Positions 32,937-57,556 of a stretch of 64,000 nt of DNA are shown piece by piece. The stretch is from Bilabrum cf. latius (lineage: Eukaryota): contig OZ237763.1 in assembly GCA_965178125.1 (NCBI GenBank), forward strand, positions 620,001 to 684,000. The letters are read 5' to 3'. The position numbers and the translations under genes were made by a program. The first letter of the stretch is position 1, and the number at the start of each line of letters is the position of its first letter. The notes below the pieces were generated by a model, which made no database searches, was not told where the DNA came from, and saw nothing but the letters and a program-made list of their open reading frames with translations.

Positions 32937-35900
32937 TTACTAAGGCACGTCCATGTCGCTCAATCTCCCTAGTACCTCCTCGATCACTGCCTTGCGCACT
33001 GGCTTCGTCAGCACCTCCTGCGCCCCGCAATCCACGAACCACCGCTGGTCCTCAGCCAGTGCATTCCCCGTCACGCCCACCACTGGCACCCGAGCGATGC
33101 ACCTGCGCCTGTCCCCTCGCATGGCCGCCACCATCTCGGGGCCCGTCATGCGCGGCATGGAAAAGTCAAGCAGCACCAGGTCGCAAGCCAAGCCCTCTCC
33201 CTTCTTCTCTCCTCGCCCCTTGCCTACCTCGTCAGCCAGGATCTGCAGAGCCCTCAGCCCGTCCTCGCCGTCCTCAGCCGCGAGCACGCGCACGTCTCCC
33301 AGACACGCCCTAACCAGTCGCTGCATGAACACCCTGTTAGTGCGGCTGTCGTCCACCACCAGGATGGTCCGTCTAGGGGAAGCAGCAGCGGGTGCCTCTG
33401 TGCCCAGAGCGGGTGCTGCTCGGCTCGTGCTGCTGGTGGTAGTGGCGGCAGCAGGCCCGTCCAATGTGCCTCCACCAAGCTTCACTTTGCGTTTACGTAC
33501 CACTCTTCGCTTCTTACTACTGATACTGTTGTCGTTGTTGCTACTCGTATCCTGCTCTGCACCGGATGCCACCCCAGTCCGTGCGTCGGTGATCTAGAGC
33601 CCAATACCGTTCGCCTGGTGGTCACCAGCCTGGAGTTCACTGGTCTTCCCTGCTGCGGCTGCAGCTGCGCCGCCACCACCGTAACCAATGTCACCATCAC
33701 GACCGGCGCCTTCTTGGATGAAGCGGTCCTGCAGACCCTCCCCATCAGATCCATGCTTCCCTCCACCATCCAGCGGTCGCGTCTCGCACTGCAGCCACAA
33801 GTAGAATATGCTGCCCACACCATACACGGAGGAAAAGCCCACGCAACCGCCGTGCAGCTTCAGCACAGATGCCGTGATGGCCAGTCCCAGCCCCGCCCCC
33901 TGTCCCTCTGCCGTCAGCACGCCCGAGTGCAGCGTCTCGAAGGGGGTGAAGACCTTGCCCCAGTCCTGGTGCTAGATCCCCGGACCCTCGTCAAATGCCC
34001 ACAGGCACAGCCCTAGCCGCTCGCCCGCCCCTTCGCCACAAGCATGGATCGACGACTCGGGGCCAGATCGGGGCATACCCAATGTCTCCGTCGCGTCCAG
34101 CCCTGCCTCCACCCAGGCCAGCGACTGTCTCCGTACCTCCGCTGCGTGCAGCTGCCGGTGATGCCGACACGTGTCTGTCGCCGAGTAACCCGTACCACAT
34201 GCGTCACCCTTGCCATCCGACTCCACCCGGAACTCGCAACGATCATGCATGCTATTTGCCGCCGGGCCGTCAGACTGCTCTTGCTCGATGCCGCCAGCGC
34301 TCCTATCACCCACCACACCGCCAAGAGCCACGCGCCGCAGCTTGTCACACAGCGAGACCGAAAGCTCCAGCCTCGCGCGTTCCCAGTCCTCCTTCCGCCA
34401 CAGGTACGGCGGGCAGGACGATGCGCCCAGCAGCACACGAGGCCGCGCCGACGACATGCCTGATGCTGCAGGTGCGTCCGCCAGCCGATGCACCAATCGC
34501 TCGTGCGGCCGTGACCACTTCAATGCGTTCGATGTGAAGTTGTACAGTGCCCCGCGCAGCCGAACGGCATCACACATCACCTGCATGCGATCCAGTCCCC
34601 GGCCACTGTGCAGCACCAGATCCACGCCCATTCCGTCCGCCTGCGACTGGAACGTCCGTCGGGTATCTGTCAGGATGGACGGCAGCAGGCGCACCCACCG
34701 CTTGTCGATCTGGAAGCGCCCCGACTCGATGTGTTCCATGTCCAGGATGTCATTCAGCGTGGTCTGCATGGACTCCGCGGCGGCCTCCAGCGAGGGCATC
34801 GTCTCGGCCAATGTCTCTGCGGCCTCACGTACATCTGCATGCCCGTCCTCGCCGGAGCTTGCAGCAGAGACAGGCAACCCATCGCAGGCGCCCTCTTGAA
34901 TGGCTTGCCTGGCCAGCTTGGTGGCTTCCTGGCAGAAGTCTAGCCCGATGGCCATGGAGTTCAGAGGCACCCTGCACTCGTGCGAGAGAAACCGCAGCCT
35001 GGACTGCAGGGCGGCCTTCTGCCTGAAGGCTTGCTGCATGGCCTGCTGCAGAGAGGTGGAGGTCTGTGACAGCTAGAATATCATCAGCAGAATGATCATG
35101 CGCAGGAAGAGCTGTGTCGTTCGTTCTATGACGTAGCGAAGAGCAAATGACTGAGACGCCTTCGGCCACTCCACAGTGAACAGGTCCGGCGTGGATACGT
35201 CTTGCAGCTCCTCGGCACAAGGAAAAACAGCCTCGATTCCCGTGAGTCTGGCGTATGCACACGGGCACAGATCGTACGTGTTTGGCTAGTACGTAATAAG
35301 AAAGTTCGAGATGCCCATTGGGGCTAGCCCAAGCAGGATTAGGGCCAACTTCCACACGAATGCCAGAACCTCGGCTTGGTCTACGATCGGAGACAGGCTC
35401 TCTGGGCTGTCGGCGGAGTCTGCAGTGGTGCCATCGGTAAGGTGCTTGGATTCACCACTAGCCAATTGGTCCTGTATAGCGAAAGAGCTGCGACGTCTAG
35501 CTGAACACACCGAGGTCCGAAGCACTAGCGACGGTGGTGTGCAGGATGAGACCGCAGCCGCAACAACCGAATCCACCCAACGGCCACAGCCGAATGGCAT
35601 ATCCTGTTGCATGTGGCTGTATTCGAGCCTGCCAGATAATCTATGGTGGCTTGTATTCGAAGTATTTGCGGCAGACGCAGTAGAACTGCAGGCTTGACCC
35701 GCGAAGAAGTCGTCAACTTGGTGCAAGCACGAGTAGTACCGGCTTGTACATGAGCTGCTGGGCCCTGTGTCACTGACCAGTAAGCCTTGCATGAGGTCGT
35801 ACTTTTGCTATGCCTCTTTCTGTGTCGCGTCCATCCCTGTCACAGGCGTAAATATGAATGTTGCGAAAGCTATCGCACTTGCTACTGTGTGAGCTACACC

Positions 35901-37292
35901 GAACAGGGCGAAGAGCCAGGCCCACGCAACCGAGCCAGCAGAGACTGCCATGCCATCCTGAATTGCATCCACGCCTACATCCGCAGGAATAGCAACTGTA
36001 GTTGTATTGTCACTCGGGACATGCCAGGGCCAGGTGTCCCTGCTGCCAGCGAAAGAGGTATGGTTGGAGTCCGACCGAGAGGCGGCCGCTTGCGCTAGGG
36101 CAGCCTCTGCATGTGCCACCTCGAGCAGGCAAACTGTGGGCAAGTCTGCGGTCAGTACTTGATTGGAAAGTGCTGCCTGCATAGATACTCCAAAGATCTG
36201 CATGAACCTGGACCGTTCCCCGGGGTTGGTGAACCTATCTGACTAGATGGCCGCCAAGGCTTGTTGCCCGCTGATGCCACCGTCGGTGGACCCAAATACG
36301 TCAGCGGCACGACCCATGGACAGCAACCAGAGGGGCTAACCGTCGTGACCCCTCCAGTAAAGTGGAACGCTTCCACCTTGCTCCCAGTCCGGCGCTATCG
36401 CTGCATCGCTGCCGTTCCTGGCAGCAGCTGCCTGCCATTCGGACAGTGCAGATCGACCGCCTGACACGGCCGATAGCAGTGCATTACGGTTCAGCACCCA
36501 CCCCGCTCCACATAATCCCAGGTATCCCCAGTAGACGACAGAAAACCCCCCTAGAATGACGCAGGTCCTGCAGGACTTGGACTTGATCTCGTGGGCTGGG
36601 TGCCGCGACACAGACCCCCCCACTAGCACCAGCGACACATATGACAGAAACAAGAAGGTTGCTATCACCCAGGTCTCTCCGGTGGACATTAAGATAATAT
36701 TATCTGCCGTGAATGCTGCTCGAATATCTAGAACCGACATTTCGTTCGACAGACGCCCGAGCAGCGCAAGTGATGTGGACCAGATGGTGGACGGATGCAT
36801 TCCAAACAGCAAAGCGGAACCAGATCTCAACTCTCCACCAGTCTGCATCGGTGGGATATGAACGAACTGAAAGTCTGCGATCAGTATCCCTGAGGCAAGC
36901 AACAGCAGCCATGCATGCGCAACCCCTTGCGACCAAACAAATCCTCTCAAGGTTGCGATGCACACATTCATCGCTGCAAGGAAGAAAACCAGCACAATAA
37001 CTATAAAGTATATATCTCCCATTGATCCGAGTGAGCTTTGCGCCGCAGCAATAATATTGACCTGCCCGCGACTCCCTGGAGGGACAGGCATTTGCAGCTG
37101 CTAAAGCAGCATTGTCGTTGAAGAGCCGACATCAAATACACGTTCACCCCCGTGAACGTCTTGTAAAATCACAATTGCAAGTACTGTCACACAAAATACT
37201 GTGACGCTGATAACTGTGCTGCTGCATATCAATGGATGCGTACCTGCATCGCTGATTCCTTGCTTGCCATCTGATCGCTGTTTATCTATCAT
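32937..37292 (-). CDS. Membrane-bound hybrid histidine kinase, copy A; TAG at 37101, 36336, 36243, 35808, 35286, 35073, 33972, 33594, 32940; TAA stop
   Basis: Multi-TM N-terminus; H box FLSHECRVPLN; N box NFTSNALK; G1 DEGPGI; F box VFTPF; G2 GAGLGLAI; receiver ILVVDD..LLDFSMPRMTG..TGNA..KP. Confidence 0.88.
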
Positions 37293-40200
37293 TCGTAATC
37301 GGATACAGCTGCAAATAAAATCTAGTAGCAGTTAAATAAACCGTGCAGACTGGAATGGTGCTGCTTAGAATACAACTTTCAGTTGAGAGAGAGTGAGAAC
37401 AAATCCAGTACGCCGGTGGGTTCGAGAGAGGGTTCAGAAGCCAGCTTCCGGTAGATGCAATTATCAGTGAATCAAACCGCCAGGCCATATCCAAATGATT
37501 TTATACAGCAGAAAAGGCTGCCAGTGGAGTCCAGAACAAGCTTTGGGGCGTTTCAAGTACTATGTGCGTGGTCCGTCGTTGGGATGACGTTAGCTTGTGT
37601 AGTGGCTCTCGTAGTCCTATTAGCTTTCGAAATATACACTGAAAGTAATATTCTTTACACTGGGCGTACCCGCGAGTTGATGCAACGTCGACTAGCCATG
37701 CCTACGCCGGCTGCCAGTGGTGATTTGCCGTTGATTGCTGCTACACAGGGCTCATTGGGGTCAATGGGTGACATATACGCTACATTAATTGTCACTGTGT
37801 TTAGTATGACTGTTTTGAACGTGTATTGGGCGATGCATTACGAAGGCGCTGCTTCTCTTGCCGGAGCGCACGCGATTCTGCAACTGGCTGCATCCGTGAT
37901 GCTATTCGCCGATTTTCGCTTTGTCCATTTGCCCCCCTCGGCAAGTTCTAGCTCATGGCGATCTAGTGCGGCTGCAATTTACGGCATGTATCCAGCAGGC
38001 ATCTGGAAAAACTCGATCGTGATGGTCAGGAAGCTGTTGAGCACGCCATCGGTCACAGTGCTCGACATAAAGCAGTCTTTTCTCATCGACGATCAGTTGC
38101 TCTTTGCTGCCGGAGAGACCTGGGTGATTGTAACGTTCCTGTTTATTGGCTATTTATCACTCGTGCTGGTTGGTGGTTCCGTGTCGCCCGCACCCAAGCG
38201 TGAGATCCAAGCCAAAGTGTGCCGTACTAGCGTAATTATCATCGGGTTTGCGGTTGTGTACTGGGGATATTTAGCGCTTTGCAATTTAGGCTGGATCTTA
38301 CAGCGAGATGCGACCCTTTCCGCGATCGAGGCGGGCAGGTTACAGCTTGCTCAGCTTTCTGCTTCCCCCGGTCGGGTCGTGAGCACAGCCTGGCATGCGG
38401 GAATGGAGCGGCAGTACATGCGCGGTGCTGACGGCCAGCCTATCTGGATGTTAGCCATGGATCGGGCGGCCGAACTGCTCGGGTCACCCGACGGCTCCAT
38501 TACTCCGACTGAGGCTGCTGGCCTTGTCAGCAACCTCACAGCTAAAGTCACGCCAGCTGCGGTGCTGGAGCAGTACCGGCAGAGCCAGGGCACTGCAATG
38601 GAAGGGGCACTCATGAATGGACTTATTGCTTCTGACAGAATTTCGATGTGCTTGCTCGAAGCCGCACACGCTGAATCAGTGCTGGCTGCTGGTGCAGCCC
38701 GGTTACCTGAGCCTGCCGGACATTGGAACGAATCAAGCAACAACTTCATACTTCATAACCAGAGTAGCTTTGTATCGACAATTCAAGGTGGCGTTTAGCT
38801 GAGTTAGTCCTCTAGGTATGTAGCATGGGTATATGCTCTCGGGGGGTTGACACATGGTGCTGCGGCACTGGTTGCCTTGATCACTTTCGTCTTCACGCCT
38901 GTGATTGGGATGGATGCACAGCAGAAAAGCGCATTGAGGCAGTACGATGAAATGAAGTAGGAAGGAAATACCGAAAGCAATGGTACCGCTTGGCCTTTGC
39001 GGTGCTACTTTGTTTGCCTGCAAGGTATAGATGAGTACTGCGGAGCTTGGTCACCGGCTGGCCAATCTGCCCAAACCCCTCAACTCACCACAAGTAGTGC
39101 GATTCCCAGCCTTCGAAACGGCAGTTCTCAAAGTGCACAGCATGAGCAGGGTATAAAACCGCCTACTTGGGGCGGGTGCATTCACCAGGTGCTGTCAGCT
39201 GCTCTCGCGGCCTGCAACCACCCAGCTGGATGCTGCAGGTGCAACCACACGTCGAGCGTGTTAAAGAAAAGATTTCTGCAACCACGCACAGTGTTGGATG
39301 CGATTAAGCCGCGCGAAAATAATAGCGATGACGGAAATGGCTCCAATCTCGATGGCTTGTTTCCTCTCGTGGACAGGTCGGAAATGTTCGCATTCGCCAT
39401 GAAGCTGGCACTCGTGCTGCTCGGGCTAGCTCCTGTTGGAATGGCAACAGTCGTAACATCGACGCCAGGAAATACATACAAAGCATGTTCATGTGCCTAC
39501 GCCAGACTCACAGGAATCGAGGCTGTTTTTCCTTGTGCCGAGGAGCTGCAGGACGTATCCACGCCGGACCTGTTCACTGTGGAGTGGCCTAGAGCAATTA
39601 AAGCTCATGCAGCATTGTATGTCACAGAACGAACGACACAGCTCTTCTTGCGCATGATCATTCTGCTGATGATATTCTAGCTGTCACAGACCTCCACCTC
39701 TCTGCAGCGGGCAATGCAGCAAGCCTTCAGGCAGAAGGCCGCCCTGCAGTCCAGGCTGCGGTTTCTCTCGCACGAGTGCAGGGTGCCTCTGAACTCCATG
39801 GCCATTGGGCTAGACTTCTGCCAGGAAGCCACCAAGCTGGCCAGGCAAGCCATTCAAGAGGGCGCCTGCGATGGGTTGCCTGTCTCTGCTGCAAGCTCCG
39901 GCGAGGACGGGCATGCAGATGTACGTGAGGCTGCAGAGACATTGGCCGAGACGATGCCCTCGCTGGAGGCCGCCGCGGAGTCCATGCAGACCACGCTGAA
40001 TGACATCCTGGACATGGAACACATCGAGTCAGGACGCTTCCAGATCGACAAGCGGTGGGTGCGCCTGCTGCCGTCCATCCTGACAGATACCCGACGGACG
40101 TTCCAGTCGCAGGCGGACGGGATGGGCGTGGATCTGGTGCTGCACAGTGGCCGGGGACTGGATCGCATGCAGGTGATGTGTGATGCCGTTCGGCTGCGCG

Positions 40201-41785
40201 GGGCACTGTACAACTTCACATCGAACGCATTGAAGTGGTCACGGCCGCACGAGCGATTGGTGCATCGGCTGGCGGACGCACCTGCAGCATCAGGCATGTC
40301 GTCGGCGCGGCCTCGTGTGCTGCTGGGCGCATCGTCCTGCCCGCCGTACCTGTGGCGGAAGGAGGACTGGGAACGCGCGAGGCTGGAGCTTTCGGTCTCG
40401 CTGTGTGACAAGCTGCAGCGCGTGGCTCTTGGCGGTGTGGTGGGTGATAGGAGCGCTGGCGGCATCGAGCAAGAGCAGTCTGACGGCCCAGCGGCAAATA
40501 GCATGCATGATCGTTGCGAGTTCCGGGTGGAGTCGGATGGCAAGGATGACGCATGTGGTACGGGTTACTCGGCGACAGACACGTGTTGGCATCACCAGCA
40601 GCTGCACGCAGCGGAGGTACGGAGACAGTCGCTGGCCTGGGTGGAGGCAGGGCTGGACGCGACGGAGACATTGGGTATGTCCCGATCTGGCCCCGAGTCG
40701 TCGATCCATGCTAGTGGCGAAGGGGCGGGCGAGCGGCTAGGGCTGTGCCTGTGGGCATTTGACGAGGGTCCGGGGATCTAGCGCCAGGACTGGGGCAAGG
40801 TCTTCACCCCCTTCGAGACGCTGCACTCGGGCGTCCTCACGGCGGAGGGACAGGGGGCGGGGCTGGGACTGGCCATCACGGCATCTGTGCTGAAGCTGCA
40901 CGGCGGTTGCGTGGGCTTTTCCTCCGTGTATGGTGTGGGCAGCATATTCTACCTGTGGCTGCAGTGCGAGACGCGGCCGCTGGATGGTGGAGGGAAGCAT
41001 GGATCTGATGGGGAGGGTCTGCAGGATCGCTTCATTCAAGAAGGTGCCGGTCGTGACGGTGACATTGGTTACGGTGGTGGCGGCGCAGCTGCAGCCGCAG
41101 CAGGGCAGACCAGTGACCTCCAGGCTGGTGACCACCAGGCGAACGGTATTGGGCTCTAGATCACCGACTCACGGACTGGGGTGGCATCCGGTGCAGAGCA
41201 AGATACGAGTAACACCAACGACAGTAGTATCAGTAATAAGAAGCGAAGAGTGGTACGTAAACGCAAAGTGAAGCTTGGTGGAGGCACATTGGACGGGCCT
41301 GCTGCCGCCACTACCACCAGCAGCACGAGCCGAGCAGCACCCGCTCTGGGCACAGAGGCACCCGCTGCTGCTTCCCCTAGACGGACCATCCTGGTGGTGG
41401 ACGACAGCCGCACTAACAGGGTGTTCATGCAGCGACTGGTTAGGGCATGTCTGGGAGACGTGCGCGTGCTCGCAGCTGAGGACGGCGAGGACGGGCTGAG
41501 GGCTCTGCAGATCCTGGCTGACGAGGTGGGCAAGGGGCGAGGGGAGAAGAAGGGAGAGGGCTTGGCTTGCGACCTGGTGCTACTTGACTTTTCCATGCCG
41601 CGCATGACGGGCCCCGAGATGGTGGCGGCCATGCGAGGGGACAGGCGCAGGTGCATCGCTCGGGTGCCAGTGGTGGGCGTGACGGGGAATGCACTGGCTG
41701 AGGACCAGCGGTGGTTCGTGGATTGCGGGGCGCAGGAGGTGCTGACGAAGCCAGTGCGCAAGGCAGTGATCGAGGAGGTACTAGG
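32970..41785. repeat. Long inverted repeat: arms ~32970-35262 and ~39492-41785 (kinase and receiver halves of the two HK genes)
   Basis: ORF pairs 33972-35039(-)/39714-40781(+) and 32940-33572(-)/41181-41825(+) are nearly identical, with only scattered substitutions. Confidence 0.93.
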
Positions 41786-41825
41786 AAGACTGGAAAAGCT
41801 GCGAGGATCCATTCGATTACATTGA
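37455..41825 (+). CDS. Membrane-bound hybrid histidine kinase, copy B; TAG at 38796, 38805, 38958, 39678, 40779, 41157
   Basis: Same architecture and motifs as copy A in one frame; TGA stop; start is 37455 or a later ATG. Confidence 0.88.
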
Positions 41826-42104
41826 GTGTGCCCAGAGGCAGAGAATCTCATTGATGCCGTATAGATGCCCCGCATAGCACAGTATGCATCGATGGACCCC
41901 GCCCCAAGCAATGGATGTGCCTAGGCAAATTCGATGGAATGCAAAATTGGCGTGGATTTTGGCGTGCAATAAGTATATTTGAAATGGTTTGGGCCAGAGG
42001 TCGACTGGACAATCTTGCAGTTGTTCCGGTTTCCGACTTGGGCAGTGGACAGAATTTCGCATTCTTTTTGGAGGAGGCATACACAACCTGAGGGAACGTG
42101 AACA

Positions 42105-45100
42105 ATGGAAGGCGGATTATTTGTCGACGTAAGAAAGAGTCTTGTTAAGCATAGTAGATATTCCCAATTCTGTGCGTTCATGGTGTGGATCGAGAATTCA
42201 TGGTCGTCGTCGGTACTGCTGTTTGCTTCATGAAAATGTCGAGTGCTAGCATTTTTTAGAGGATGCACAAATGTCTCCGTGGTAGAATATATGTTGCTAT
42301 ACTCATCATCTCTATTCAGCAGGACAAAGCAGTTGCCCAGCGGTATGCGGCCTCGTCGTAGGCTTTGTCCAGTGTGGGCAAGGAGTACCGAGCTGATGGC
42401 GAGACGGAATCATTCCTGGCAAAGAGGCTGCAACTCCTCTCTCAATGCACACCATGGGGAACGAATGTTATAAGCTTTGTGGAAAGTACCATGCACGATG
42501 CCCTTCAGCAGCGCAAGCCGGGCGGGTTCCTAGCGGATGGGACCAGCGAGCTCCAGTTCGAGGCCGACGCGGGCCAGCTCTACAGTCGAGTGGCTGGGGT
42601 CCGTGTGTCTCCGGAGGGAGATCGGGTGCAAATACTGTTGGATAAGACAGCGAGCAGGAAAGAAGCGCTTCTTTCGGCAGCCGACGTGCGAGTCGTGGCA
42701 AAGCACTTTGTGACTGACGGGAACGTGTCGCTTTTCCCACTCACGAAGGACCTTCCGCAGCCCCTTCAGGAGGTGCAGGTGAATCCTCCCTGTCTGGCAG
42801 GCACTGCAATTGCAAGCACAATGCTGCAAGCTAGCCTGATCCTGCGTAACCTCGCCATGGGGCAGGAGATGTCTGCCAAGGCACCCTTTGCCATGCGGCC
42901 GGCTGCCGTGATGCTCGCGGCACGGGGATTATCAGACCATGAGCTGAGCTGCTTGCGCTCCATTCCAACACGAGAACAGGAGGATTCAGATAAGGCCAAA
43001 AGAGAAGCTCGCCCACCCCCGCCACAGCCCGTCGCTGGGTCATTGTGGTGGGACGTGCACGGCGAGGTGCCGGTGGAAAGGCACGAGGAGGAAGCCGGTG
43101 GAGGCATAAGCTGCACCATCGGTACCCCTGCCCTGTGCGTGCAATTCAAGGCGTTCCTGGAAGAGGCTAAGAAGGAATGCGTCAAGGATGCTGCCAGTGC
43201 TGCATGTATGGCGGACGGTTCCCCGCGAAAGCAGAGCGCCCACGGAGGAGCAGATGATGGCTCGGCGGCAGCAACCAAAGGAGCAGTGTCAGGTGCCGGT
43301 GCCCGGAAGGCTGTACCACAAGGGGCGGCAAGGGATCCTCCAGCTGCGCCTGAAGGGGTCCGTAGCAGCGGCACAGGCGTGCATCCTAGGCGCGTGCTGC
43401 TGCTGGGTCGCGCTCTTGCCGACTGCAACAACGGCGGTATGGTCAAGATGGATGACCCACACGACACGGCAATCGCCAGATTTGCACGCGACATAAATGA
43501 TAGCATCGATGTGATGTCCAGGACCTTTCCTCAGTTGGCCCGACTGCGCGAGCTGCATAGGCTGTTTGCTGCGTTCCGGGTCGCAAAGCAGCTTGCCAGC
43601 GATGCAGTTGATCCAGAGAGACAGAGAGACTGGGAAAACATACCAGCTGTCTTGAGGGGTGTGTGCTGCGACTTCAATCCGAGCGATGGAATGCTGCGTG
43701 CCGTATCTAGCGTTGAAGAGGAGTAGGCTGCTGCAAGCAAGGGTGCAAAGTCGCCCATTCAGCAGAGGTTGGTTCCATTCGCCATCGGACTGACGGGTAG
43801 ATACGATGGACTTGCAGCACAGGCAAGCAAAGGCATCGATGGCTGGGAGCCCGACGTAGGCAGCGTGGTGGACGTACAGGACAGGTACTTCCACTATTAC
43901 ACGGCAGAGGTGCTTGCAGTTAGTGCGGACAGTGCTGGTGCCCCGCTATATTTGGTTCACTTCGATGGATGGAACCACGTAAATGACGAGTGGGTTGGTG
44001 TCGAGAGAATGGCACCAATCCACACGCACACATTACGTGGAGCCCGCAGCACGGGCCCAAATAGCGGGGTGCTGGCGCATCCAGAGATGGGGACACAGGT
44101 AGAGTACAAGATCGGAAACATGGGCGACGGCACGCCGTTCTATACGCCAGCTCGCGTGCAGACCTGCAGTGGCCGCGGCGAGAGGGCTACCGTTCTGCTC
44201 GAGATGACTGCGGACTGTTTCAATCCAAGCGACAACAAGCGTGTAGTCGCAAGGGGTTCGAACGTCTACGCCGGACTGGGTTTGATCAGAATGGCCACTG
44301 CCGGCGACTCGCCGACCGAGAGTGACATTCGAGGTGGCATTTCAGGCGGAAGGGTTACACCCGGGCAGCGCGTTGATTTCATGATGGATGCATTCGCATG
44401 GTCCAAGGGAGTTGTCCTCAAAACTGATGCGCGCAGCAACAAAGCTCTGGCTCGCCCGCGTGGGCTAGGTCCAGACTGGGACCACTGGGTGCCATGTGAT
44501 CTCAGCTGTATGGCACCGGAGGGTTCTCGCACCCAGTGGCGCCAAGAGAGCCGGGGGCCGCTCGCGGCGCCATTGTTTGGCGCGCCGGTCTGGCTGAGAT
44601 CTTGCGGTGGGCCCATGGGAACGGGCTTCGAGGAGGGCATGGTAGAGTGCACTGTGGCAAAGGTAGAAGGTGAGGGGGGCCAGGCCAAAGTGTGGGCTCG
44701 GGAAGTATCCAAATCCAAATCCGCAGCCGACCCCGGCGTCTGCGTTACAATGAGTGATGGCCGTCTTCGCCTGCGCAATGCATCCAAATTCCTGCTCGCA
44801 CCAAGCTCTGACGTGTTGGGAGAAACTGACGGCTCCGGTCTGCGAGTCGGGCAGTCCGTGGACGTGCGCGACGACAGTTTTGCGTGGTTCACCAGCACGA
44901 TCGAGGCGGTGGAGAGGCAAGAGGTCGCGGCAAAGGCAGGATCAGGACCAGATGAAGCGCCCGGGCCTGCAAGGGGTCATGATAAGAAGGTGGCCATCAA
45001 GGTCAGATACGATGGGTGGAGCAGATTCTGGACAGAGCGCATTGAGTTGCCGTCCCCTCGAGTGAAGCCTCTGCACACCCACACCCCTGCTGGCTTCCGC

Positions 45101-45385: not shown

Positions 45386-45495
45386 GTTATAACCTTATGG
45401 GGCAGGAGGGCGGGGGCACGAGCGCAGCGGGTCCACCGGCAAACAGTGCTTGCGAGTTATTACATTGAAATTTGTTTCAGCATTCATCCCTTTAT

Positions 45496-48400
45496 TTAAC
45501 CTTGCACGTCGGCAGCATCCATTTCGTCTACCTCTGCAAATATGCCGTCCACCTGTGCCCGCAACCACTCCCTCCAGGGCTTCGTGCTGAGCTGCTTCTG
45601 CAGCTGGCTCTCCACCTGCTTCCTCAAGTCACGGTATGTGGGCAATTCCTCATCTGGGGTCTCGCTGGGGATCTACAGGATGATATCTCGCAGCACGCTG
45701 TGCACTAGCCGCAGCTCGGCACGCGTCGTACCAGGAGGCGCGGGCTTTGACGAGTCAAAGGATGAGGGCACCGGGCCCGTGACGGTGCTGGCACTTGACG
45801 CTGGAGCATGCGCCTGGGCATCCACGACACCGCTACGAGAGGCAGGGTCATGCAGACCCAGCGCCGACGCTCCCCCAGGCACACCGGGACCACCTGCAAG
45901 AGTCGCCTGCTGCTGCTGCTGCTCTTTCGCGGTACCGTCCTCGCTGCCAGTCCTGCTCTTGGGTGTGTCTACTGAAAACAAACCCTCCAGGTTGATGGCG
46001 TGGCCCGGTGTGGCGCCTGGAGTGGGCAAGGTCAGCGAGGGGTCGGTGCTGCGCACCAGGCCCACGCCAGCACCACCACCGACAGCGCTCGACTCCCTCG
46101 CATCAGAATTGCCCGCCTCAGAATCGCCACGGTTTCCCTGCTGCTCGTCAACCCGTTTGTCTCCGAAAGCACCCTACTCGATTCCAACCACAGATCCGAT
46201 CAGTCCAGCGGCAGTCTGCGCCTCCTGCTCCGACTGAAAGCACAGATCTACCCCGCCTGATGCCGCGCCGTCCCTAGTCTGCAGCACCACGCATTTACCC
46301 GCAAGCATCGACATCTTGGTTTGCACAGAACCGCGGATCAGCCGCAGGGCGGCTTTACAGCGCGCAGGTTTCTTCACCTGCACGCTGATTATGTCGCTAA
46401 GCACGACCCGACGGGCACTCGCTTCGCTTCCTTGCTGTGCGCTTTCTAGCCCGGTCCCGCTGCCTACTGTAGCTGCACCTGCCTGATCGGGCGCGCGGGC
46501 TCCCAGCTACCAATAGACAGCGTCGCCCGGCCTTGCCCACAGAGCGCCCATTGAGAAGCGAGTGTCTGCTGTGGCCGCCTTCATCCCGCACGTGCACACA
46601 ACTGGTGTTGTACGGTCCGATGTGCCGTCCTTGCCGTCGATGCCCGCGTGAGAGGAGGCAGCCAGGGCGCTGGAGGTTGCATCGGCCCCGCGCTGCCCAT
46701 CGCTTGGCCCGGCGTTCTCCCGACCCCGTTCTCCATCTTCCTCTGGGCTCCCAATGTCCAGCACATCCGTGTCCAGGCTGTCTGCGTCCCTTTCTCCTTC
46801 TGCCCAGCCGTCCTCGGAGCTGGCTGCCTGGCCCTTGCTGGCACTGCCTGGCACACCACCGTCAGCACTCCTACGACTATCACCCGCGCCGACTGCAAGA
46901 GAGGCCGCTGGAGCAGACACGCTGCGGTTTCCTGCTATCGCGCCTCCCTCGGGGAACACCAGCTGCACGAGTGGAATTTCAGCACCAGACGCTTGCGCAC
47001 CATCGACCGGTGCCGCGGCAGTGGACTGCAGAACAGACGTCCGCATGGCTTCTGCTGACGACAGCACCAGTCTGGCAGCCCTGAGAGCATCTCGCACAGC
47101 CTCCGCTGCTTCCTCTCTTGTGACGGCCTGATCCTCGCTCTCTGCCTCATGCTGCGCTGCCTTGGCTTGCCGATCTAGCGCCTCCAATTGCGCCTTGATG
47201 GCCCTGCATTCGCCCTCCAGGGCCTCTACCTCCTGGATGTCCTTCCTGGCCTCGGCTTGCATGGCTCTGGCCTTGCCCTAAGCATCGTCTCTGCTCTCCC
47301 GAGCCTGCCTGGCGGCTTCTAGGGATCGATCCAGCCTCTGCCTGCCCTCTGCCAGGCGCTTTTGCTGCACGCCCCGTTTCTTCTCGGCATCTTCCAGCTC
47401 GCGGCGGGCGTCGTCTCGCTGTTTCTGTGCTTGCTTGCGCTGCTCATCTGCGGCAGAAGTCTCTCGCCTTCCTGAGGATGCCTCTGCGACGGCTCGGGCG
47501 GCCTGCATCGCAACGTCATCGGCCTGTTTCCTAGCCTGCTCCTCATCACGAGCGGCCTGCTGGGCCCCGGCCTTGAGCCGAGCTATCTCAGCCCTGAGAT
47601 CTTCCAGTCGCATCGGGCTAGAGGCACTAGAGGCGCGCTCCTGCGCCTGGTGCAGGCTCTGCTCGGCCTCTTCCTGGGCCTGAGACAGCCGTGACAGTGC
47701 GACATCCCTCCGGCGAGCGGCTTGCTCCATCGACTGCCTGGCCCTCTGCAAGTCCTTGCCCAGCGAGGCCTCTGCCTGCACCAACTTGGAGTCCTCCTGG
47801 TCGAGCTGTCGGGCTGCCTGCGCGGACTGCGACGCCTGACGCCGCGCCTCGGCCGCCCGCTGCGTGGCCACCTCTGCCTCCCTCTCCGCCATCCCCGCTT
47901 GTTCCCTGGCCTCCACCAGCTCCCTCGCCTTCTCCCTGTACTTGGCCCACCGGTCCTCCAGCGCCTCCCGCCTCTTCTTCAGCTCGCCTCTCTGCTTGTC
48001 CAGGTGCTCCTCCAGCGCCTCTACCTCTGCCTCTGCCTGCTCCACCATGGCGCGCTGCTGCACGCGCCGCTCCACCAGCACGTCTGCCTCCTGCCGCCCT
48101 GCGGCGCTGGCTTCGCGGAAATCGGCCTCGGCCGCGGTTACCCCAGCGAACTCCAGCTGCAGCTGCCTCCGGAGCTCGGCTGCATCGGCGGCCCTCTGCA
48201 GTACCTGCCTCGTCGATGGCTCCAGGCTCCAGCCGTCCGTGAGCACAGCGGGTGGGACTGCAAGCGAGCGAACGCCCGCCTGCTCGCTGCCTTGTTCCCT
48301 GACGCCGCTCGGCATAGCTCCCTGCCTATCTGCGGCGCAGTTTCCAATCGATACATCCGGTGCCTTTGGCTTGCCGTGTGAGACTCCTGCAGCGTTGCCC

Positions 48401-50082
48401 TCGCCCTTGTGATCATCATTGCCAGCACTGGGGGTTTCAGCCCCTCCGCTTGCTCGATCTGCTCCCAGCAGGACCAACAGCGAGGCCGCCGCAGCCTCTC
48501 CGCACCTCTGGTTGTCCGATAGATCCACCCGTCGAATGAGGGGCAGGGCGCCTTTTCTGAGGCCCTCCAGCAGAACCACGGCTGCCCGGTCGTCCAGGGC
48601 ACATCCAGAGAGATCTAGCTGCTGCAGTGCACTGCCGCTCTCAGCCTCGGCCGACGCTTTGGCAGCACGGCCCGATGATTCATCTGCGTCGCTGATCTGG
48701 CTGCTGAGCAGCGCCTTCATCCCGTATGCCGTGAAGCCGCACCCGGACGAAACCTAGAGCGAGTCGCTGGAAATGCCCGCGCCGGGGCGCGATACCCGGA
48801 GCAGCCCCGAGGCGCCGCTCGCTTCCAGAGCCTCCGATATTTTGCGACCAGTCCCTCCGAGCAACTGCCTCGAATCGCCGCGTGCTCTGCTACTGGGGAC
48901 CATCGCTCCAGTCTGTTCGTTCCCATGCGCCTGCGCCTGCGCCTGCACCTGTGCCTGTGCCTGACCCCCGAGCAGCAAAGCCTTCAGGGACCCGCTGGCT
49001 CCCAAGAGCGCCCCCGCCGCCTCCATGGCCCCGTCAGTCAGGAAGTTGTCGCGGAGGTCCAGCACCTCCATTCGGGGGCACCCGTTGATCGCGGCCGACA
49101 TAACGTGCGCGGCGCCCTGGTTCCGCAGCATGCAGCTGGCGACCCGCAGTACGGCCAGTTCAAGCGCGTCCTGGAGGCCATCAGCGAGCGCACGCGCGCC
49201 CGAGGGACCGATGGAATTGCCCGACAGGTCCAGCACGCGGACTGGGGAGGACCGTCCCTGGGATCGGATCGCCTGTCCCAGGGCGGCGGCGCCCTGCGAC
49301 CGGATGAAGGAGCGAGCAAGGAGCACTTGCTCGAGGGAGGGCGCTCCCTCCCGCATGGCAGCGGCAATCGCCCTGCAGCCGCTGTTACCTACCGGGTTCC
49401 CATCAAACGAAAGCAGCCGCAAAGACTTCGAGGACTTGATTGCTGCAGCGATGGCCACAGTGCCTGCTGGTCCGATGTCGTTCAGGGACACGTCGAGCGA
49501 GGTGGTGCCTGGCATCGCTTCCAGTGCCGCCCCCACAGTGCGCGCTCCACGGTCCCACAGGCCACAGCTCCTCAAATTTATCGACTGTCCTGGAAAGGAT
49601 CCTACGGATTCAGCCGATTGGGCGCTTTCATTGATCTGTCGTATCACTGCAGGATCAAGCTGCCCGGCAGCTCTCAGCTCACCTACCGTCGGTGGATCGG
49701 GTAGGGTGCTCAGGGCTTGACTGTCAGAATGCCTAGTACCTGGATGTTGCATCATGCTCGCACCTATGATTCGCTCGCCTGGTAGGGACAAATCTGAGCT
49801 CACTATGGTGTGCGACCCAAAGCTAGCTTGTCGCAGGCCAATGCTGGGGGGATTTGGCGGCTCTGCAGGACGCCACCTCTGATTGAATCCCAGATTAGAA
49901 ACCGACTGTGCCAATGATGCGTCTTGGCGCGCAAACCTTCCAATTGGGCTGGTTGATCCGCGCAACTCCCGTCCGGCCCCGCTTTTTCGAGACAAGTAAC
50001 TACTCTCGTCGTATGCAGGGCCAGCGTCTCTCCCATCAATCATACTTGTATACACTGTACCATATCCCGAATCAAAGTCCAT
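45496..50082 (-). CDS. RI-like LRR + coiled-coil + PH-like + DEK-C-like protein; TAG at 48754, 47278, 46507, 46174, 45673; TAA stop
   Basis: LRRs (LDVSLNDIGPAG, LDLSGNSIGPSG), long A/E/Q/R coiled coil, PH-like LSDIISVQV..VDLCFQSEQEA, terminal TYRDLRKQVESQLQKQL..WLRAQVD; single frame. Confidence 0.75.
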
Positions 50083-50251
50083 CGGCCCTGGTTGCTACTG
50101 CGAGTACAAGTTGTGTCGCGCAAACGGAAGCCCGGCGCCGCGCGAAGTATCATGCGGAACCTGAACATTTCGGTTGGCGAACTGAGCACGTTCGCGGATG
50201 CATCATGCACCCAAGATAACGGCTAGATGCGCAAGATAAGGTAATATTTAT

Positions 50252-53200
50252 ATGCAGGAGCGGCGCGGACTGATGGGTGCGTCTAGTTTGGAACGTGACT
50301 CCGTGTCAACCATGCTGTCATTCGGGACCTTGAGCGTACCGTCGCGATTGGAGGACGCTGTAGAAGGTTTTCCGCCTCCCCACGTAGAATCGACGTATAT
50401 TGATCGATGCATTGGCCACGTCCCAGGGGTGTTCCCCGTGAGCCTTGGAATTGCTCTATCAGCGGATGGGTTAGACACTGTAGGACATGCGGCATTCTCG
50501 TCTGCGATTGGAGCCGCAACGGGTAAGCTGAGGAAGCTTCACATAAGAGGCCCTAAAAAACAATCTCGGACACCTAACCAGATGGCTCAGGATGCCCAAA
50601 AGCTGCCCCGTGACAAGCACAGAGGTGCTTCTGATGGAAGCGCATGCAGCGTGTTTCGGCAAGACTCGAGCGATTCATTGGCCCTATCGTTCGGAGAGGA
50701 TACTGACGCCCTTAGAGAGGAAAGCAAAGTTGCTGCAGGGGGAGCCGCTTCGTCCTCCATGGCAGGCAAGGCTCGTGGGCCCGTGCGAGTAGCATCTATA
50801 CAGGCCGTGGCAGTCCTGCGGTCGAGCGCGAACGTTGACCTATTCTTTGGAGTCCGTGACCAATCTGGGGCTACGAAAGAGCCAGATACAGATGTTGACA
50901 GCACATCACACGCACCAGAAGGCCCGATAGCAGCTGCTGCGACCGTTTCTACCACGTCTGCGCAAGCCGCTCACTCGCACGCTGGCCGCGCCTGTCTTCT
51001 TCCCAGACTCTTCGTGGATCTTGGAGGCTGGAACCCTTCAGACAGCGAAATCATAGCCATGGGACGAAGTCATGGAGACTTCACGACCTCGCTGTCTCTT
51101 CGGGACTGCCACCGAGTGTCTGCAGATGGGATCCAGCAGGGTGTCTGCAGGCTCAAGCTGCTCCGAGACCTCGATCTCGCAGGGTGCACTCGAGTGTCAG
51201 CGGCCGCGGTCAGGTCGATCGCCATTCACTGCGTGTCGCTCGAATGCCTGGATCTCTCTGACTGTCTCGCGGTGGACGACGGCGCAGTAAGGGAGCTCTC
51301 GCTGCGGAGCAGGCGCCTCTCCACGCTCAAACTTGCGCGGTTGCCTTTGCTCACAGACCTGGCGTGCCAGGGGCTTCTAGAACGACCGAGGAGATCTGCA
51401 GCTCCGTGGAAGGCGCTCTCGCTGCAGGGATGCGAGCGGATTACCAGCGCGGGGGTGCTCGCCGCCGTGTCACGAAGCAAGGGAGATCCCTCCGAGCTTG
51501 TCGAGCTTGATCTATCCCATATGGCACGGGCCAGTGACCTGTCTTTTCTGGGGGCTAAAATGCCCAAGCTACAGAAAATTGATGTGAGCGGCATCTTGCT
51601 CGGGGACGAAGCGCTCGAGTGGGTAGGACGGGCTGCCGCCGGTGCCCTCAGAGACATTGCTCTGCAAGGTTGCCGCACCATAAGCAAGGTCGGGCTGCAA
51701 GCGCTGTGTGACCAGTGCCCCGACATCGAGGTGCTGGATATTTCGCGATGCTTTCAGCTCGGAGACGAGACGCTAGGCACTCTGGGCGCATGCCTCGTGG
51801 GGTGCAGTCTTCGGGTCGTGCGGCTGGACGGCCTGCGCGAGCTGCACCCACCCAGCCTTCGGGCGTTCTTCGCCGCCTTTCCCAGGCTAGAAACCGTGTC
51901 CTTGGTTGGAGTTGAGAGAGTCGACGACAGGGCCATCGAGATCCTCGCTGGCACGGCGGGGCCCAGGCTGCGGCAGCTCATTTTGACAACGGACTGCAAG
52001 GCCGGAGACGGTGCTTCGAGCTAGTCTGCTCCCGGTCCCAGGATCAGCGACGCGGCGCTCAGGGCACTGGGGAGGCACTGCACGGAGCTGGAAGTATTCC
52101 ATGCGGCTGGAATGCGGCATGCCACAGACAAAGGGGTGAGGCGCCTCCTGGTTGGTTGCTTCCGGCTGCAGCGGGTGTCTATCGGAGGCAGCTCGAAGCT
52201 GACCGATGCATCGCTTTAGGCGATAGGCGCGCGGTGTCGTCGCATGCAGGGGCTGTTTCTTGCGCATTTGCCCTCAATGACCGAGGCTGGTCTTCTCCAG
52301 ATCGCTAGGGGATGCCAGCGACTGAGACAGGTTACGCTGTCTGGATGCGCCAAGGCGGTCACGACACTTGCCGTGATGCACCTGCTGAGGGCGTCCGGCA
52401 ACAGCCTAGTGGAGCTGAGGCTGTCTGGCTGCAGGCGAGTGCAGGTCCTACAGGCCTTCGCAAGGGTGGCCAAAGATGCCAGATCCCTCCAGCTCGTGGA
52501 TCTCTCCTACGGCCCCATACTGTGCGATGCAGCCGTGGGGCTCCTTGCACGGTCGTGCCCTTCCATGCACACGCTCAACGCCAACGGCGCGAGCTCATCG
52601 GTGTCTTCGTCTGCACTGGCTGCTGCTGCGGCCATCCTGCCGCTGGCCCGGCTGAGTCAGACTGGGTACGGCCTGGAGCCCGGGCACGCGATCGCCCGGT
52701 GCACCGAGCTGCTGAGCGCCTCGATTCAGAGGACGGAGCGGTCTGCATGGGCTGTCATCCGGCTGCAGAGCATCTGGCGCGGTCGCGTGGCTCGATGGTT
52801 CGTGGGCAGGATCCGAGAGGCTCGAGAGCGCCTGGAGCAGGCCAGGCGCACGGCAGCTGCGATTCCCGTGCAGGCCGCTGCGAGGAGAAACCTCAAGAGG
52901 AAGGCATACCTGAAGGTGATGGAGATCCGAGCAAGCGCGCAGATTCAGGTCCGGGCTGCGTGGATGGGTCACTACACCCGCAGGCAAGTCAATGAGATGA
53001 AGGATGCCATGGAGCGAGGCTTCAAGCACGCTCTCGCTATCCAGTGCCAATGGAGGTGCCATGTGGCCCGCCGGATGCGCAGGAGGCGAGCCATGCAGGC
53101 CGTCTCCAAGAAGCTACGCCCGTTCCTGCGATACCGCGCGGCCTTATAGCGGGCCGCGATTCGGCTCCAGGCCCACGTGCGAGCCTGGGTGACGCGTCGG

Positions 53201-56200
53201 CGCGCCATCGCATGGATCATGGAGCGGGTTGGGGCTGCGCTGCACATCCAGAGAACATGGCGCGGGAGGCAAGGCCGCCATTTCGCCCACATGTTGAGGG
53301 AGAGACGCAACGGCGCCGCTATTACAATCCAGTGCATGTGCCGCCAGAGGCTTGCGTACTTGGCAGCTTGGCGCCTGCGGATCGAGGCCATGAGGAAGTG
53401 GCAGTGTGCGGCATACCTGCAGGCGATCTACAGGGGGCACAGGGGGAGGCAGCTCGCCAGTGAGATCAAGCAGCTCAAGTTGCAGAGAGACTTGGCGGAG
53501 ACGAGGCGGCTGCAGGAAACGCGCGAGAAAGAGGACAGCGCCGCCCGGTTCCTGCAGCGTACCTATCGTGGGCATGTGGCGAGGCAGCGGGTCACGACGC
53601 TTCGCCAGGCACTGCGGTTTGAATCGAGGCGGCTGCAGGCCGCACGGCGCATTCAGCAGAACTGGAGAGCCAGCAGGTCGAGGAGGATGCTCCGCAGGGC
53701 CAAGGAATTTGCCGTGCAAGGAGCCAAGCTGGCACCGGCACTCGCGGCACTGGGCCAGCGACGGCGGGGGATGATGATGGCAGGGGCAGCGTGCAGCATC
53801 CAGCAGTTCTGGAGGCGGTACACGGCCAGGGACAGGGTCTCTCGCATGCTGGCCGCGGCACGAAAGGGTAGTCTCACGCGCGCGTGGTTCCTGCCCTGGC
53901 GAGACGCCCGAGTCGCCTGCGCCACCAAGATCCAGCGGGCGTTTCGGAGGTGCGCCCGCATCGCCTACTGGCGCGCCATTGCTGCCGCGCTGTTGGCGGG
54001 AAAGAAGGCCCGCCTGCAGGTGCTGGCCGAGGCCGCGGCTCGCCTGATCCAGGCCAGGTGGCGGGCGATCAAGGAGGCGAGGCGGCACCGGGCCATCATC
54101 GAGGCGGAGACGGCGTACCTCAGGGAACAAGCCGAGATGAGGAGAGTGCACCGGGCGGTCACGAGAGCGGACCCGGATCTGGAAAGAGAGGCCCGTGCAA
54201 GGGCACGGATGCACCGGGCGGACAGGGAAGCAAGCGCAAGGGGCAGCAACGCCCTGCGCGCAGCTACTGGTGGGCTGCTGGGCACAGATTCCAAGGAGAA
54301 AGAGCAGGCCGCCGAGTTTGCGGTGCGGTCGATGATGCGTCGCACGGTGAGAGAAGCCGGTGTGGTGAGCGTGGCCATCACGGTAGGCGAGCGGGAGCGG
54401 CTGGAACGGCAGCAGCGGAACGACCGTCTGAAGGAAAGCAGCCGGCCGCACGAGGTCGTACTCAGGTACGACCTCTCGGCGGCGCTGCCCCCTGACAAGG
54501 CCCTCGCTTCATTGCAGCAGAGGAGGCTCGCACTGCAGGCCTCCCTTGTGGCGGAGGGGCTCGGAAGACAGGAGATCCGGGACAGGCTGGCCCGGTGGGA
54601 GCGGCGACGGGAGCCGTCCACGTACGCCAAAGACGTCCGGCTGTGGGTGATGCGGTCCAGCGCCGGGGAACACAAGGGAGAGCCGGTGCAAGATCCCCTC
54701 ACAGATTTGCGACTGGCACCGTTGGCGCAGGGCACCTCCCGGGACGATCTGTACAAGGACAGGGAGACTGCCCGCGCCTCGGGAGATGTAGTCATTTCGC
54801 ACAGGGGGGAGGGGACCAGGCTAGAGCTGCGGGCCAGGCGCGACGGGCCCAAGCGCATCACCCAGATCGCCGTGGGCCCGGTGGACCCACGCATGCTGGA
54901 GGCCCAGGTGCTGCTTAAAGAAGAGATGGAGCCGCTGGGGGTGGACCTGTCCGAGTGCGGGCTTGCGGAAGGCCTGCAGGTCTGGGTCAAGCGGGAGGGG
55001 GTGCCCCGTCCTCCCGCCGCCGAGCAGGCCAAGCAATCGCTGAGCAAAGAGCCGTGGTGGAGCCCCCTGCTGCAGCGGGTGATCGACATGCTCCAACTGC
55101 GTCCGGGTGATGTGGAGCGGCTCCGGGGCATCTTCGAGGGGCAGAAGGGCTTCAAGAAGCGGGCGGGCAGATCCGGGGTTGTCCCTTCCAGGGATATCTT
55201 CCACGGCGTAGAGCTGCCGTACGGAGACTTCTCGAGGCACGTGGTGGTGTTCCTTGGCGTGGGGGACGGGAGCGAGGAGGACGACATGGAGTTCGGGGAG
55301 TGGGCGTGGCTGGTGGCCTCGCTTGGCCTCATGGCCAGGCCCGAGATCGCCCGGCTGGCCTTCTCCTACATCGACAGGGATGGTCTCAAGGCGGTGTCCA
55401 CGGCACAGCTGCTGGCGGGCTGTGAGGAGCTGCTCCGCGTGCATCCCATGGGCGTGTCCCTCTCCATGGTGCGTTCCAAGGCCTCACACCTAAAGAAGAA
55501 CTCGCTCGGGCAGATCCCGCAGTCAGAGTTCGAGGTCCTGGACACGCTCATCCCCGCCGTGTCGTTTCCCGCGCACCACATGAGGCAGCAGTTCGTGACC
55601 CGCGTGCTGGGAGAACGATTCTGGGAGGGTCTCAAGGCAGAGTACCAGGCGGTTCGGCGGAGGCTGAGAAGGCTGAGGGAACTGAAGAAGCTTGCCGAGC
55701 TCGAGGAACCGGATCCTGCCCTGCTTGCGGTGCGGCTGGCAGAGTCATGCGCGAGGAGGAGCCCGCTCGTGAAGCAGGCCTTCGTAGAGAGGGTGAGGGC
55801 GGCCTCGCCGCTCGCGCAACTGACGGGCCAGGGAACGTTCGGTGCTGGCGGGGAACAAAACGCGGCGGGAAAGAAGGACATGCGGGAGCGCGGGGCCGTG
55901 TGCGTGGCGGTCGTGGTGCCCTCTATGCCGGAGTGCGTCCGCTGGGCGGGGCAGAGGCGGTTCTAGGTGGAGCCCTCTGCGGCGGGATATGCCGAGCTCT
56001 GCAGACACGAGGGGCTCAGGAGAGAGGTCATGAGGAGCATCGCACTGCAGTGCAGCAAGGCGGACCTGCCTAGGGACCAGGTCCCCAGGGACCTGGTGCT
56101 GACCGCGGTGCCCTTTGCCGGCAGCAACGGGATGATGCTGCAGCCCTCCGAGCCCGGCAAGGAGCCGACCGTGCTGAATAGAGCTGCCATCCGCGCTGCG

Positions 56201-56920
56201 TACAGGCCGCACCTGCAGATCCTGGCCAAGCGCGTTGCGAGGGAGATGGGCAAGCCCACCGTGCTGGAGGAGCTGGCGAGCGCGGCCCGGGCCTTGTGGC
56301 CTTTCGGTGGAGGCGGAGGTGGAGGGAGAGGCGATACCAGTGGGGGTTAGAGAGGAAGGAGAAGAGAAGGAAGAGGAGGGAAAGGGAATGGGCAGGAAGG
56401 GCAAGGAGAAGGAGATGGCAGCATCATGGCCAGAGCCGCTGGCTTCCTTGGGATGGGGCGGGCAGGAGTACCTGGGATCGGTGCGGGTGCAGGTGCGGGT
56501 GCGGGGGCAAGGGCCGGGACAGGAACTGGGTCCTTGCACAACCGCTCGAGTTCACGAGGTGGAGAAGGGATCTCGGCGGACCAGGGGTACTCCAGGGCTG
56601 TGGCCGAGGTGGCCCGGGATGTGCGGGCCGCGAGTGCCACTGGGGCCAGTCTGCGGCACGGGGGGCCTGGGGGTGGGCTCGCGGGGGAAGAGGGCATGGA
56701 GGTGCTGCAGCACCGGCTGGCCGTGGCGGAGGCGGGCGGGGCGAGGGGCTTTAGGGAGATGCGCAGGGAGATGGCGGCGAGGGCAAGGCAAGCACAGGCG
56801 GAGGGGGAGCATGGGGCGGCAGCGGAGCGAGCGTTGGATGCGGCTGCGGGAAGGAGCAGGAGTGGCGCGCCTCGCATGCTGGTAGGGGGCAAGCCGGTCC
56901 GGGCGATCGGCCCCGGGTGA
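50252..56920 (+). CDS. FBXL/AMN1-type LRR + multiple IQ motifs + EF-hand-like protein; TAG at 52022, 52217, 53147, 55964, 56348
   Basis: Cys-containing LRRs (LDLAGCTRVS, KLTDASL*AIGARC), many IQ motifs (IQRTWRG, LQAIYRG, IQARWR), EF-like MEFGEW and AFSYIDRDG; single frame; TGA stop. Confidence 0.8.
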
Positions 56921-57067
56921 GCCATGCGGCATGCGTCTGCCTGCTGCTGCAGCGCGAGTACACCAGAGGCCACGATAGATTGCCAAAATATATGCTTCTG
57001 TCGATTGAATCTCATACCACCCACAACTCTTTCATTCCTACGTCAAACTAGAGAATGTGCACTGCAA

Positions 57068-57556
57068 TTACTCGTACCGGCCGTACAGGTACGGGTTCTG
57101 GGGCTCCTTGCCCGGCTTGGATTCCACGCACTGCACCCACAGCAAGTACCGCTCTCTCATCAAGGTGTCGAGCTCCGGCTTCGTGAATGGAGGCTTCTAG
57201 GTTCCGTACGACAAACCGGTGTTTGTGAAGTCCATGGCTGCGCAGTGAGCAAAAGTCGAGGAGGGTACGGCCTGTGGAGCAGCATGCAAATATACTTCCA
57301 AGCATTCTTTAGTGCGCACCGGTTCTGAGCTACACACCTAATGACCAATTCAAACGATTACAGATAAATGAAAGCGTAAACATATCATTCTGATTCGCAA
57401 AATCGTCTCACTGAGGCGCACATAATCGGTCCAACGGCGCTTGCAGCGGTGCTTTCCAGGCCTGAAAGGCTGAGCCAAGGAAAAGGGCCTGCCATCCATC
57501 AGGTCAGAGTCCTTGAGAGTGTCTGCGAAGGTCGAACGCTTGCCAGCGCTAGCCAT
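57068..57556 (-). CDS. Small hypothetical spliced protein (exon structure uncertain); in-frame TAG at 57197; TAA stop
   Basis: Exon 1 MASAGKRSTF...CKRRWTDY followed by GT; last exon ..MDFTNTGLSYGT*KPPFTKPELDTLMRERYLLWVQCVE..YGRYE-TAA. The junction is not resolved. Confidence 0.4.

Follow-up and report, generated by a model that had tools for sequence, protein, structure and literature searches.

In-frame UAG codons, read as glutamine by comparison with relatives, and retained UAA and UGA stops in a 64-kb window from a putative Cafeteria-related stramenopile

Results

The locus and its in-frame TAG codons

The stretch of DNA analysed here (hereafter the window) comprises 64 kb of contig OZ237763.1 (assembly GCA_965178125.1, positions 620,001 to 684,000), with approximately 61% GC and zero N, in which 20 genes totalling 17,728 sense codons were modelled. 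Many of these genes contain TAG in frame, and a preliminary description of the window had proposed that UAA is uncoupled from UAG and still acts as a stop. The genes bearing most directly on this proposal are: HK1, a hybrid histidine kinase (HisKA, HATPase_c and receiver domains) on the minus strand (32937..37100), with eight in-frame TAG and a TAA stop at 32937-32939; HK2, its paralogue, located head to head with it on the plus strand (37470..41825), with six in-frame TAG and a TGA end; a gene for an LRR_6 and long coiled-coil protein, an open reading frame (ORF) of 1,568 codons on the minus strand (45496..50085), with five in-frame TAG and a TAA stop at 45496-45498; and a small two-exon gene on the minus strand (exon 1 from 57556 to 57412, intron 57411-57238, exon 2 from 57237 to 57068), with one in-frame TAG and a TAA stop at 57068-57070. 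Two plus-strand genes ending in TGA lie among them: a Tudor-knot/chromo-like gene (exon 1 42105-42128, GT..AG intron 42129-42322, exon 2 42323-45385), and a gene for a leucine-rich repeat (LRR) and IQ-repeat protein of 2,222 codons (50252..56920) with five in-frame TAG.

That TAG is a widely used sense codon is apparent from the ORFs themselves. Under the standard stops, the window holds 38 ORFs of at least 300 amino acids (17,403 amino acids in total); opening TAG gave 60 such ORFs (37,721 amino acids), five of them longer than 1,400 amino acids, and opening TAA instead gave just 44 (19,600 amino acids). The 62 in-frame TAG are spread over 17 of the 20 genes. A codon log-odds score blind to all three stop triplets found 26 TAG between two coding-like flanks of 50 codons; the same score found one TAA in such a position (5207, minus strand), an artefact between the stop of the alpha-galactosidase gene and the antisense of the elongase gene, and three TGA, each at a gene end or in an antisense frame.

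Spliced contigs assembled from the public run X5 cover the TAG-bearing exons of the Tudor-like and LRR-IQ genes without a single differing letter (the Tudor-like contig spans 42323-45429); the TAG codons are therefore present in the RNA, and are not edited. The runs X5, X7 and X8, none of which is recorded as RNA, were taken as RNA-derived solely because two GT..AG introns are absent from their contigs, and transcript ends are not visible from these contigs. An artefact, whether from pseudogenes, assembly errors or the editing of UAG to CAG in the RNA, would be hardly credible, being the least probable of the explanations considered: TAG is present in 17 of the 20 genes, conserved genes among them, recurs at other positions in an independent environmental relative (the contig L001 described below), and is unchanged in the spliced contigs, which come from another study.

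Glutamine opposite TAG

The main exon of the alpha-galactosidase gene (5258..6370, minus strand) provided the strongest evidence that TAG stands for glutamine. A metagenome scan returned L001, an environmental contig of 2,973 nt which is syntenic with positions 5345-8274 of the window at 65-80% DNA identity, and whose ATP synthase gamma shares 93% amino acid identity with that of the window. The alpha-galactosidase gene of L001 contains six TAG and zero TAA in 456 codons. In the alignment of both alpha-galactosidases, glutamine lies opposite TAG in four of the eight TAG columns (the probability of at least four glutamines by chance is 2e-4); these four columns correspond to one TAG of the window and three of L001, including a TAG-TAG pair opposite Gln-Gln, and two of the positions are, we presume, conserved across the enzyme family.

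The kinase pair agrees with this assignment, the sole TAG column in a well-conserved stretch of the HK1/HK2 alignment lying opposite CAG. The TAG of ORC1 is found opposite glutamine in the human protein and arginine in the fly protein. Other TAG columns were uninformative or ambiguous: that of mevalonate-diphosphate decarboxylase (MVD) is variable (K, S, A, N, R, G), as is that of the ABC transporter (M, T); the first TAG of the GPI8-like transamidase faces W or A depending on the placement of a gap; and the TAG codons of Utp14 and ATP synthase gamma are in unconserved parts. TAG thus faces glutamine in relatives and, on these alignments, UAG is read as glutamine.

The two kinases are identical in 993 of 1,529 aligned columns. 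They have diverged in the N-terminal sensor halves, and roughly 780 C-terminal codons are nearly identical until about ten codons before the stops, an arrangement which looks like recent gene conversion or inverted duplication. Within HK2, 166 nt (39796-39963) with non-canonical ends (CA..CG) are missing from contigs of X5 and X8; an allele, an artefact of repeat collapse between both kinase copies, or unusual splicing could account for this gap.

Two further observations concern the environmental sequences. The intron of the alpha-galactosidase gene at 6371-6561 (minus strand) is absent from L001, suggesting that close relatives have gained or lost an intron here, and a second short intron upstream seems common to both. 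The scan also returned L002, a distant ATP synthase gamma (32% identity) without DNA similarity to the window, which was not used.

Absence of TAA from the reading frames

Neither TAA nor TGA occurs in frame in any of the modelled genes (zero each in 17,728 sense codons, compared with 62 TAG), as the preliminary description had stated for TAA. The counts in the coding frame and the two off-frames (TAA 0, 34 and 55; TGA 0, 297 and 332; TAG 62, 117 and 116) indicate that TAA is kept out of the frame like TGA, and unlike TAG.

This absence speaks against a code in which both UAA and UAG encode glutamine (NCBI table 6), which is used by many ciliates, Hexamita, Streblomastix, ulvophytes and Amoeboaphelidium. 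In such a code TGA would be the sole stop, TAA would be a glutamine codon kept rare by GC bias, and the three TAA at gene ends would be sense codons in C-terminal tails. The GC content of the window favours this explanation, and the preliminary description had cautioned that GC bias could make a sense TAA rare. The caution is answered by the usage of the other glutamine codons: with a CAA:CAG ratio of 136:582, about 14 TAA would be expected alongside the 62 TAG were the two synonymous, and none was seen (P = 2e-6; P = 4e-6 without the three TAG common to the duplicated kinase halves). The same probability calculated from 13 A/G-ending codon pairs ranged from 1e-3 (CTA/CTG) to 3e-17, a range obtained with an earlier count of 63 TAG, before one of them proved to be intronic. 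The result also held in the sensor regions of the kinases (1,410 codons, 53-55% GC), where, as originally noticed, CAA and TAG are both used and TAA never (CAA:CAG 29:40, eight TAG, zero TAA; P = 0.013).

TAA at gene ends

Seventeen of the 20 genes end in TGA and three in TAA, all three on the minus strand and at the positions already reported (32937, 45496 and 57068). In the TGA-delimited frames of real genes, TAA is confined to 5' leaders, introns or the last 23 codons. If TAA were a sense codon of low frequency, all three would fall no more than 23 codons before the next TGA with a probability of 1.7e-5. The ends at 32937 and 45496 rest on a drop in coding potential and on these position statistics, and that at 57068 also on homology.

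HK1 closes with CCT TAG TAA, its last sense codon being a TAG directly before the TAA, and this TAA had been placed right after the receiver domain; it lies 12 residues past the Pfam receiver match. At 45496, the codon score drops across the TAA, from 21.2 bits for the preceding 50 codons to -4.1 for the following 50; three codons later comes a TGA, and beyond it TAA TAA. A homologue search with the C-terminal 169 residues of this protein scored none of 1,227 candidates. The preliminary description had this TAA follow a DEK-C-like domain: the TAA does end the ORF, but the Pfam match of the domain is weak (E = 0.12) and does not reach the cut-off.

The third TAA, also predicted earlier to close a gene model, belongs to the small two-exon gene, which had been left undescribed. 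Contigs of X5, X7 and X8 skip 57238-57411 (CT..AC on the plus strand, corresponding to GT..AG on the minus strand) at high depth, and both exons share one frame. When the 55 residues encoded by exon 2 were searched exhaustively, 30 proteins were recovered, of which 22 were aligned. They form a family of conserved proteins of roughly 85-125 residues, including the Cafeteria roenbergensis hypothetical protein P0252, with neither a Pfam nor a PDB match; an initial candidate identification of exon 2 as the N-terminus of ribosomal protein S9 (E = 0.21) was rejected, the real family being a different small protein. Four of the 22 homologues (P0243, P0245, P0248 and P0252) end at the residue aligned to the last residue of the window protein, and four others stop three to four residues earlier. 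Reading through the TAA would add 11 residues which are absent from the closer homologues. By this comparison, the TAA at 57068 is a real gene end.

Several points weigh against reading UAG as glutamine and UAA as a stop. Concerning UAG, the other four of the eight alpha-galactosidase TAG columns face arginine, glutamic acid, leucine and serine; the closest MVD relative has lysine opposite the TAG of the window; and the closest relative of the small protein has serine opposite its TAG. Concerning UAA, the TAA ends number only three, and TGA is the 23rd, 4th and 12th codon after the TAA at 32937, 45496 and 57068, respectively, the distances to the next stop being shorter after the three TAA than after the 17 TGA ends (one-sided Mann-Whitney P = 0.036). 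The alternative end at 45496 differs by just three residues, so that homology could not decide there. At 57068, 13 of the 22 homologues extend from three to approximately 35 residues past the end of the window protein, the C-terminus being conserved only among the closer ones. Moreover, the homologues were predicted under the standard code, and the closest of them, P0243 (87% identity), would have been cut at any TAA anyway; it is consequently not independent, and only the more distant homologues count. The comparison of C-termini also assumes the standard code for Cafeteria. Finally, gene starts and some exon borders are our own models.

The proximity of TGA to the TAA ends had been raised as a caveat for at least two of them, and it is true of all three (4-23 codons on). 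It would fit table 6, with these TAA as sense codons in tails that run on to TGA. That the three TAA are all found in the last 23 codons, and that homologues of the small protein end at the position of the TAA at 57068, are opposed to this and, with the missing internal TAA, make the table 6 code very improbable.

The short distances could also reflect a weaker or backed-up TAA terminator, or nothing at all. In the extreme version of the former, TAA would be unassigned or a poor terminator, TGA would be the sole efficient stop, and the three genes would rely on the TGA behind their TAA, as the nearness of the backup TGA would suggest. The distance test, however, carries little weight at three genes; the C-terminus of the small-protein family coincides with the TAA at 57068; and an unassigned codon ending a well-covered transcript (high contig depth, three runs) would stall ribosomes. 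We consider this alternative quite unlikely, although marginally less so than table 6.

Two observations concern the surroundings of these ends, where the intergenic spacers are very short. Between the stops of the two convergent genes at 45385-45496 there are 110 nt, and the X5 contig of one of them extends 44 nt beyond its TGA. From the HK1 stop to the ATG of the next gene on the same strand (32821-32937) there are about 115 nt.

TAG codons close to gene ends

TAG was found within the last five sense codons of three of the 20 genes, compared with 0.35 expected (P = 0.006): in HK1 (32940-32942), directly before the TAA, with a tail of zero codons; in the ABC transporter (3411-3413), three codons before the TGA, with a tail of two codons; and in the Tudor-like gene (45368-45370), five codons before the TGA, with a tail of four codons. 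These TAG probably once served as terminators, and translation would now continue past them to a backup stop nearby.

The same enrichment, and in particular the TAG directly before the TAA of HK1, would be compatible with an ambiguous TAG, specifying glutamine inside genes and terminating at some ends, comparable to the codes of Condylostoma or Blastocrithidia; the three genes would then end at their last TAG. The pattern is equally expected from old TAG stops which are read through to a backup stop, and the tails are very short, as if selected. Furthermore, no gene of the window needs TAG as a terminator, and it is TGA that follows the conserved C-terminus of ATP synthase gamma. An ambiguous TAG is accordingly unlikely, though the least improbable of the alternatives, and it would leave the retention of UAA as a stop unaffected.

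Other genes of the window and lineage of the source

The gene content is typical of a eukaryotic nucleus. Together with a PDR-type ABC transporter, a fatty-acid elongase and the alpha-galactosidase, the window encodes the mitochondrial ATP synthase gamma, the GPI8-like transamidase, ORC1, Utp14, MVD, the two hybrid histidine kinases, LRR and IQ proteins and a cadherin-repeat protein. Rfam also identified an RNase MRP RNA gene at 25885-26243 on the minus strand (RF00030, 64.6 bits, full-length match). Short GT..AG introns are few, and two of them were confirmed as removed in the contigs of the public runs.

Two further ORFs were noted. One, at 15000-16307 on the plus strand (435 codons, GC content at third codon positions 0.82, three TAG, TGA end), was not included in the 20-gene count. 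The other, at 12714-14135 on the minus strand, encodes an arginine-rich SR-like protein whose tail is a tandem array of 24-nt repeats, dozens in number, with units made up of the residues R, G, D, S and E; all three frames are open in this tail, and ORF-based scoring consequently chooses a wrong frame, which by chance ends in TAA at 12764.

The closest named match of the ATP synthase gamma was that of Cafeteria roenbergensis (57% identity), followed by oomycetes (36-39%), and environmental proteins showed up to 97%, 88% and 61% identity to the window protein, the relatives as a whole spanning 56-97%. We therefore read the source of the window as a stramenopile related to Cafeteria.

Discussion

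Taken together, the results make it highly probable that the window derives from the nuclear genome, rich in GC and poor in introns, of a Cafeteria-related stramenopile in which UAG encodes glutamine and UAA and UGA remain stops. The observation made in the preliminary description is confirmed, and its interpretation, that UAA is uncoupled from UAG and still a stop, is supported within one window by the absence of TAA from the reading frames, by the gene ends, and by one end backed by homology.

A plausible mechanism would be a tRNA-Gln with the anticodon CUA reading UAG. A CUA anticodon would pair with UAG and not with UAA, so that the two codons could part; its likely source would be a tRNA-Gln gene with the anticodon CUG, one mutation away, 81% of the glutamine codons of the window being CAG. 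At the same time, the single eRF1 would have lost the recognition of UAG, or would be outcompeted there, and would still recognise UAA and UGA. Genes formerly ending in TAG would now extend to a backup stop close by, or have acquired TGA or TAA in its place. This scheme follows from wobble and from the single release factor of eukaryotes (PMC5304391, PMC11687900); because eukaryotes are described as having a single class-I release factor (PMC5304391), eRF1 would have to discriminate UAG from UAA and UGA. No tRNA gene was detected in the window with ARAGORN or Rfam, and no eRF1 gene was present among the window ORFs scanned with Pfam.

UAA and UAG nearly always share their meaning, and differ in a handful of nuclear lineages (PMC5304391, PMC11687900). 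The precedents for a change of UAG alone given in the preliminary description (Iotanema with glutamine, a rhizarian with leucine, and some ciliates) were correct but incomplete, Protocruzia, two phyllopharyngean lineages (glutamine) and Scotinosphaera (serine) having also been published (PMC11687900). In the fornicate Iotanema spirale, UAG encodes glutamine, UAA and UGA are stops, and eRF1 carries a T32G change (PMC5304391). The codon assignments proposed here are identical, with UAG as a sense codon and UAA kept as a terminator; Iotanema is, however, an anaerobic metamonad with UAA as its main stop, whereas TGA predominates in the window (17 of 20 ends), whose GC content, mitochondrial ATP synthase gamma and grouping with stramenopiles also set it apart. 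In Protocruzia tuzeti and two lineages of phyllopharyngean ciliates, UAG, and not UAA, encodes glutamine (PMC11687900). This is the same reassignment, and the tRNA(CUA) logic for the uncoupling would also apply to it, but these are ciliates with 27-54% GC in which UAA is the most frequent stop. Neither the gene content nor the composition of the window resembles that of a ciliate, and Cafeteria is its closest named relative.

UAG has also been uncoupled from UAA by reassignment to other amino acids, namely leucine in the rhizarian exLh and some phyllopharyngeans, and serine in Scotinosphaera (PMC5304391, PMC11687900). The present case differs from these in the amino acid proposed, leucine and serine lying opposite TAG once each in the eight alpha-galactosidase columns, compared with four times for glutamine. 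The table 6 codes resemble it in a stop read as glutamine and in TGA as the main terminator; TAA is a sense codon in those codes, whereas here it is missing from all the sense codons and ends three genes. Codes with ambiguous stop/sense codons are known from Condylostoma, Parduczia, Blastocrithidia and Amoebophrya. A resemblance to them is possible for UAG alone, which is enriched beside gene ends; TAA and TGA are never internal here, and dedicated stops consequently exist. With UAG at glutamine positions, no sense use of UAA, and UAA and UGA at gene ends, the code proposed here matches the type of Iotanema and Protocruzia in its assignments (formally NCBI table 15).

The type of code is thus already known, whereas its occurrence in this lineage appears to be new. 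A literature search, whose coverage of subscription journals and supplements was incomplete, found no report of an altered nuclear code in any stramenopile or bicosoecid. Tentatively, and with somewhat less than even confidence, we suggest that no nuclear code change had been seen before in stramenopiles: a lineage related to Cafeteria, which several environmental data sets contain, may have independently evolved UAG as glutamine with UAA and UGA as stops in a GC-rich, TGA-dominated genome, the TAG stranded upstream of the present stops being fossil terminators which mark how genes survived the change.

There are practical consequences for annotation. Gene callers using the standard code cut 17 of the 20 genes described here, and the public proteins P0001 and P0243 of relatives start with translated non-coding sequence, showing this kind of miscalling. 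An independent case in a different major group, with a GC content in the range opposite to that of most ciliates, bears on the current explanations of such changes: codon capture under AT pressure cannot explain it, and a tRNA(CUA) derived from the dominant CAG-reading tRNA-Gln can. The organism, if in culture, would serve to study how eRF1 separates UAG from UAA.

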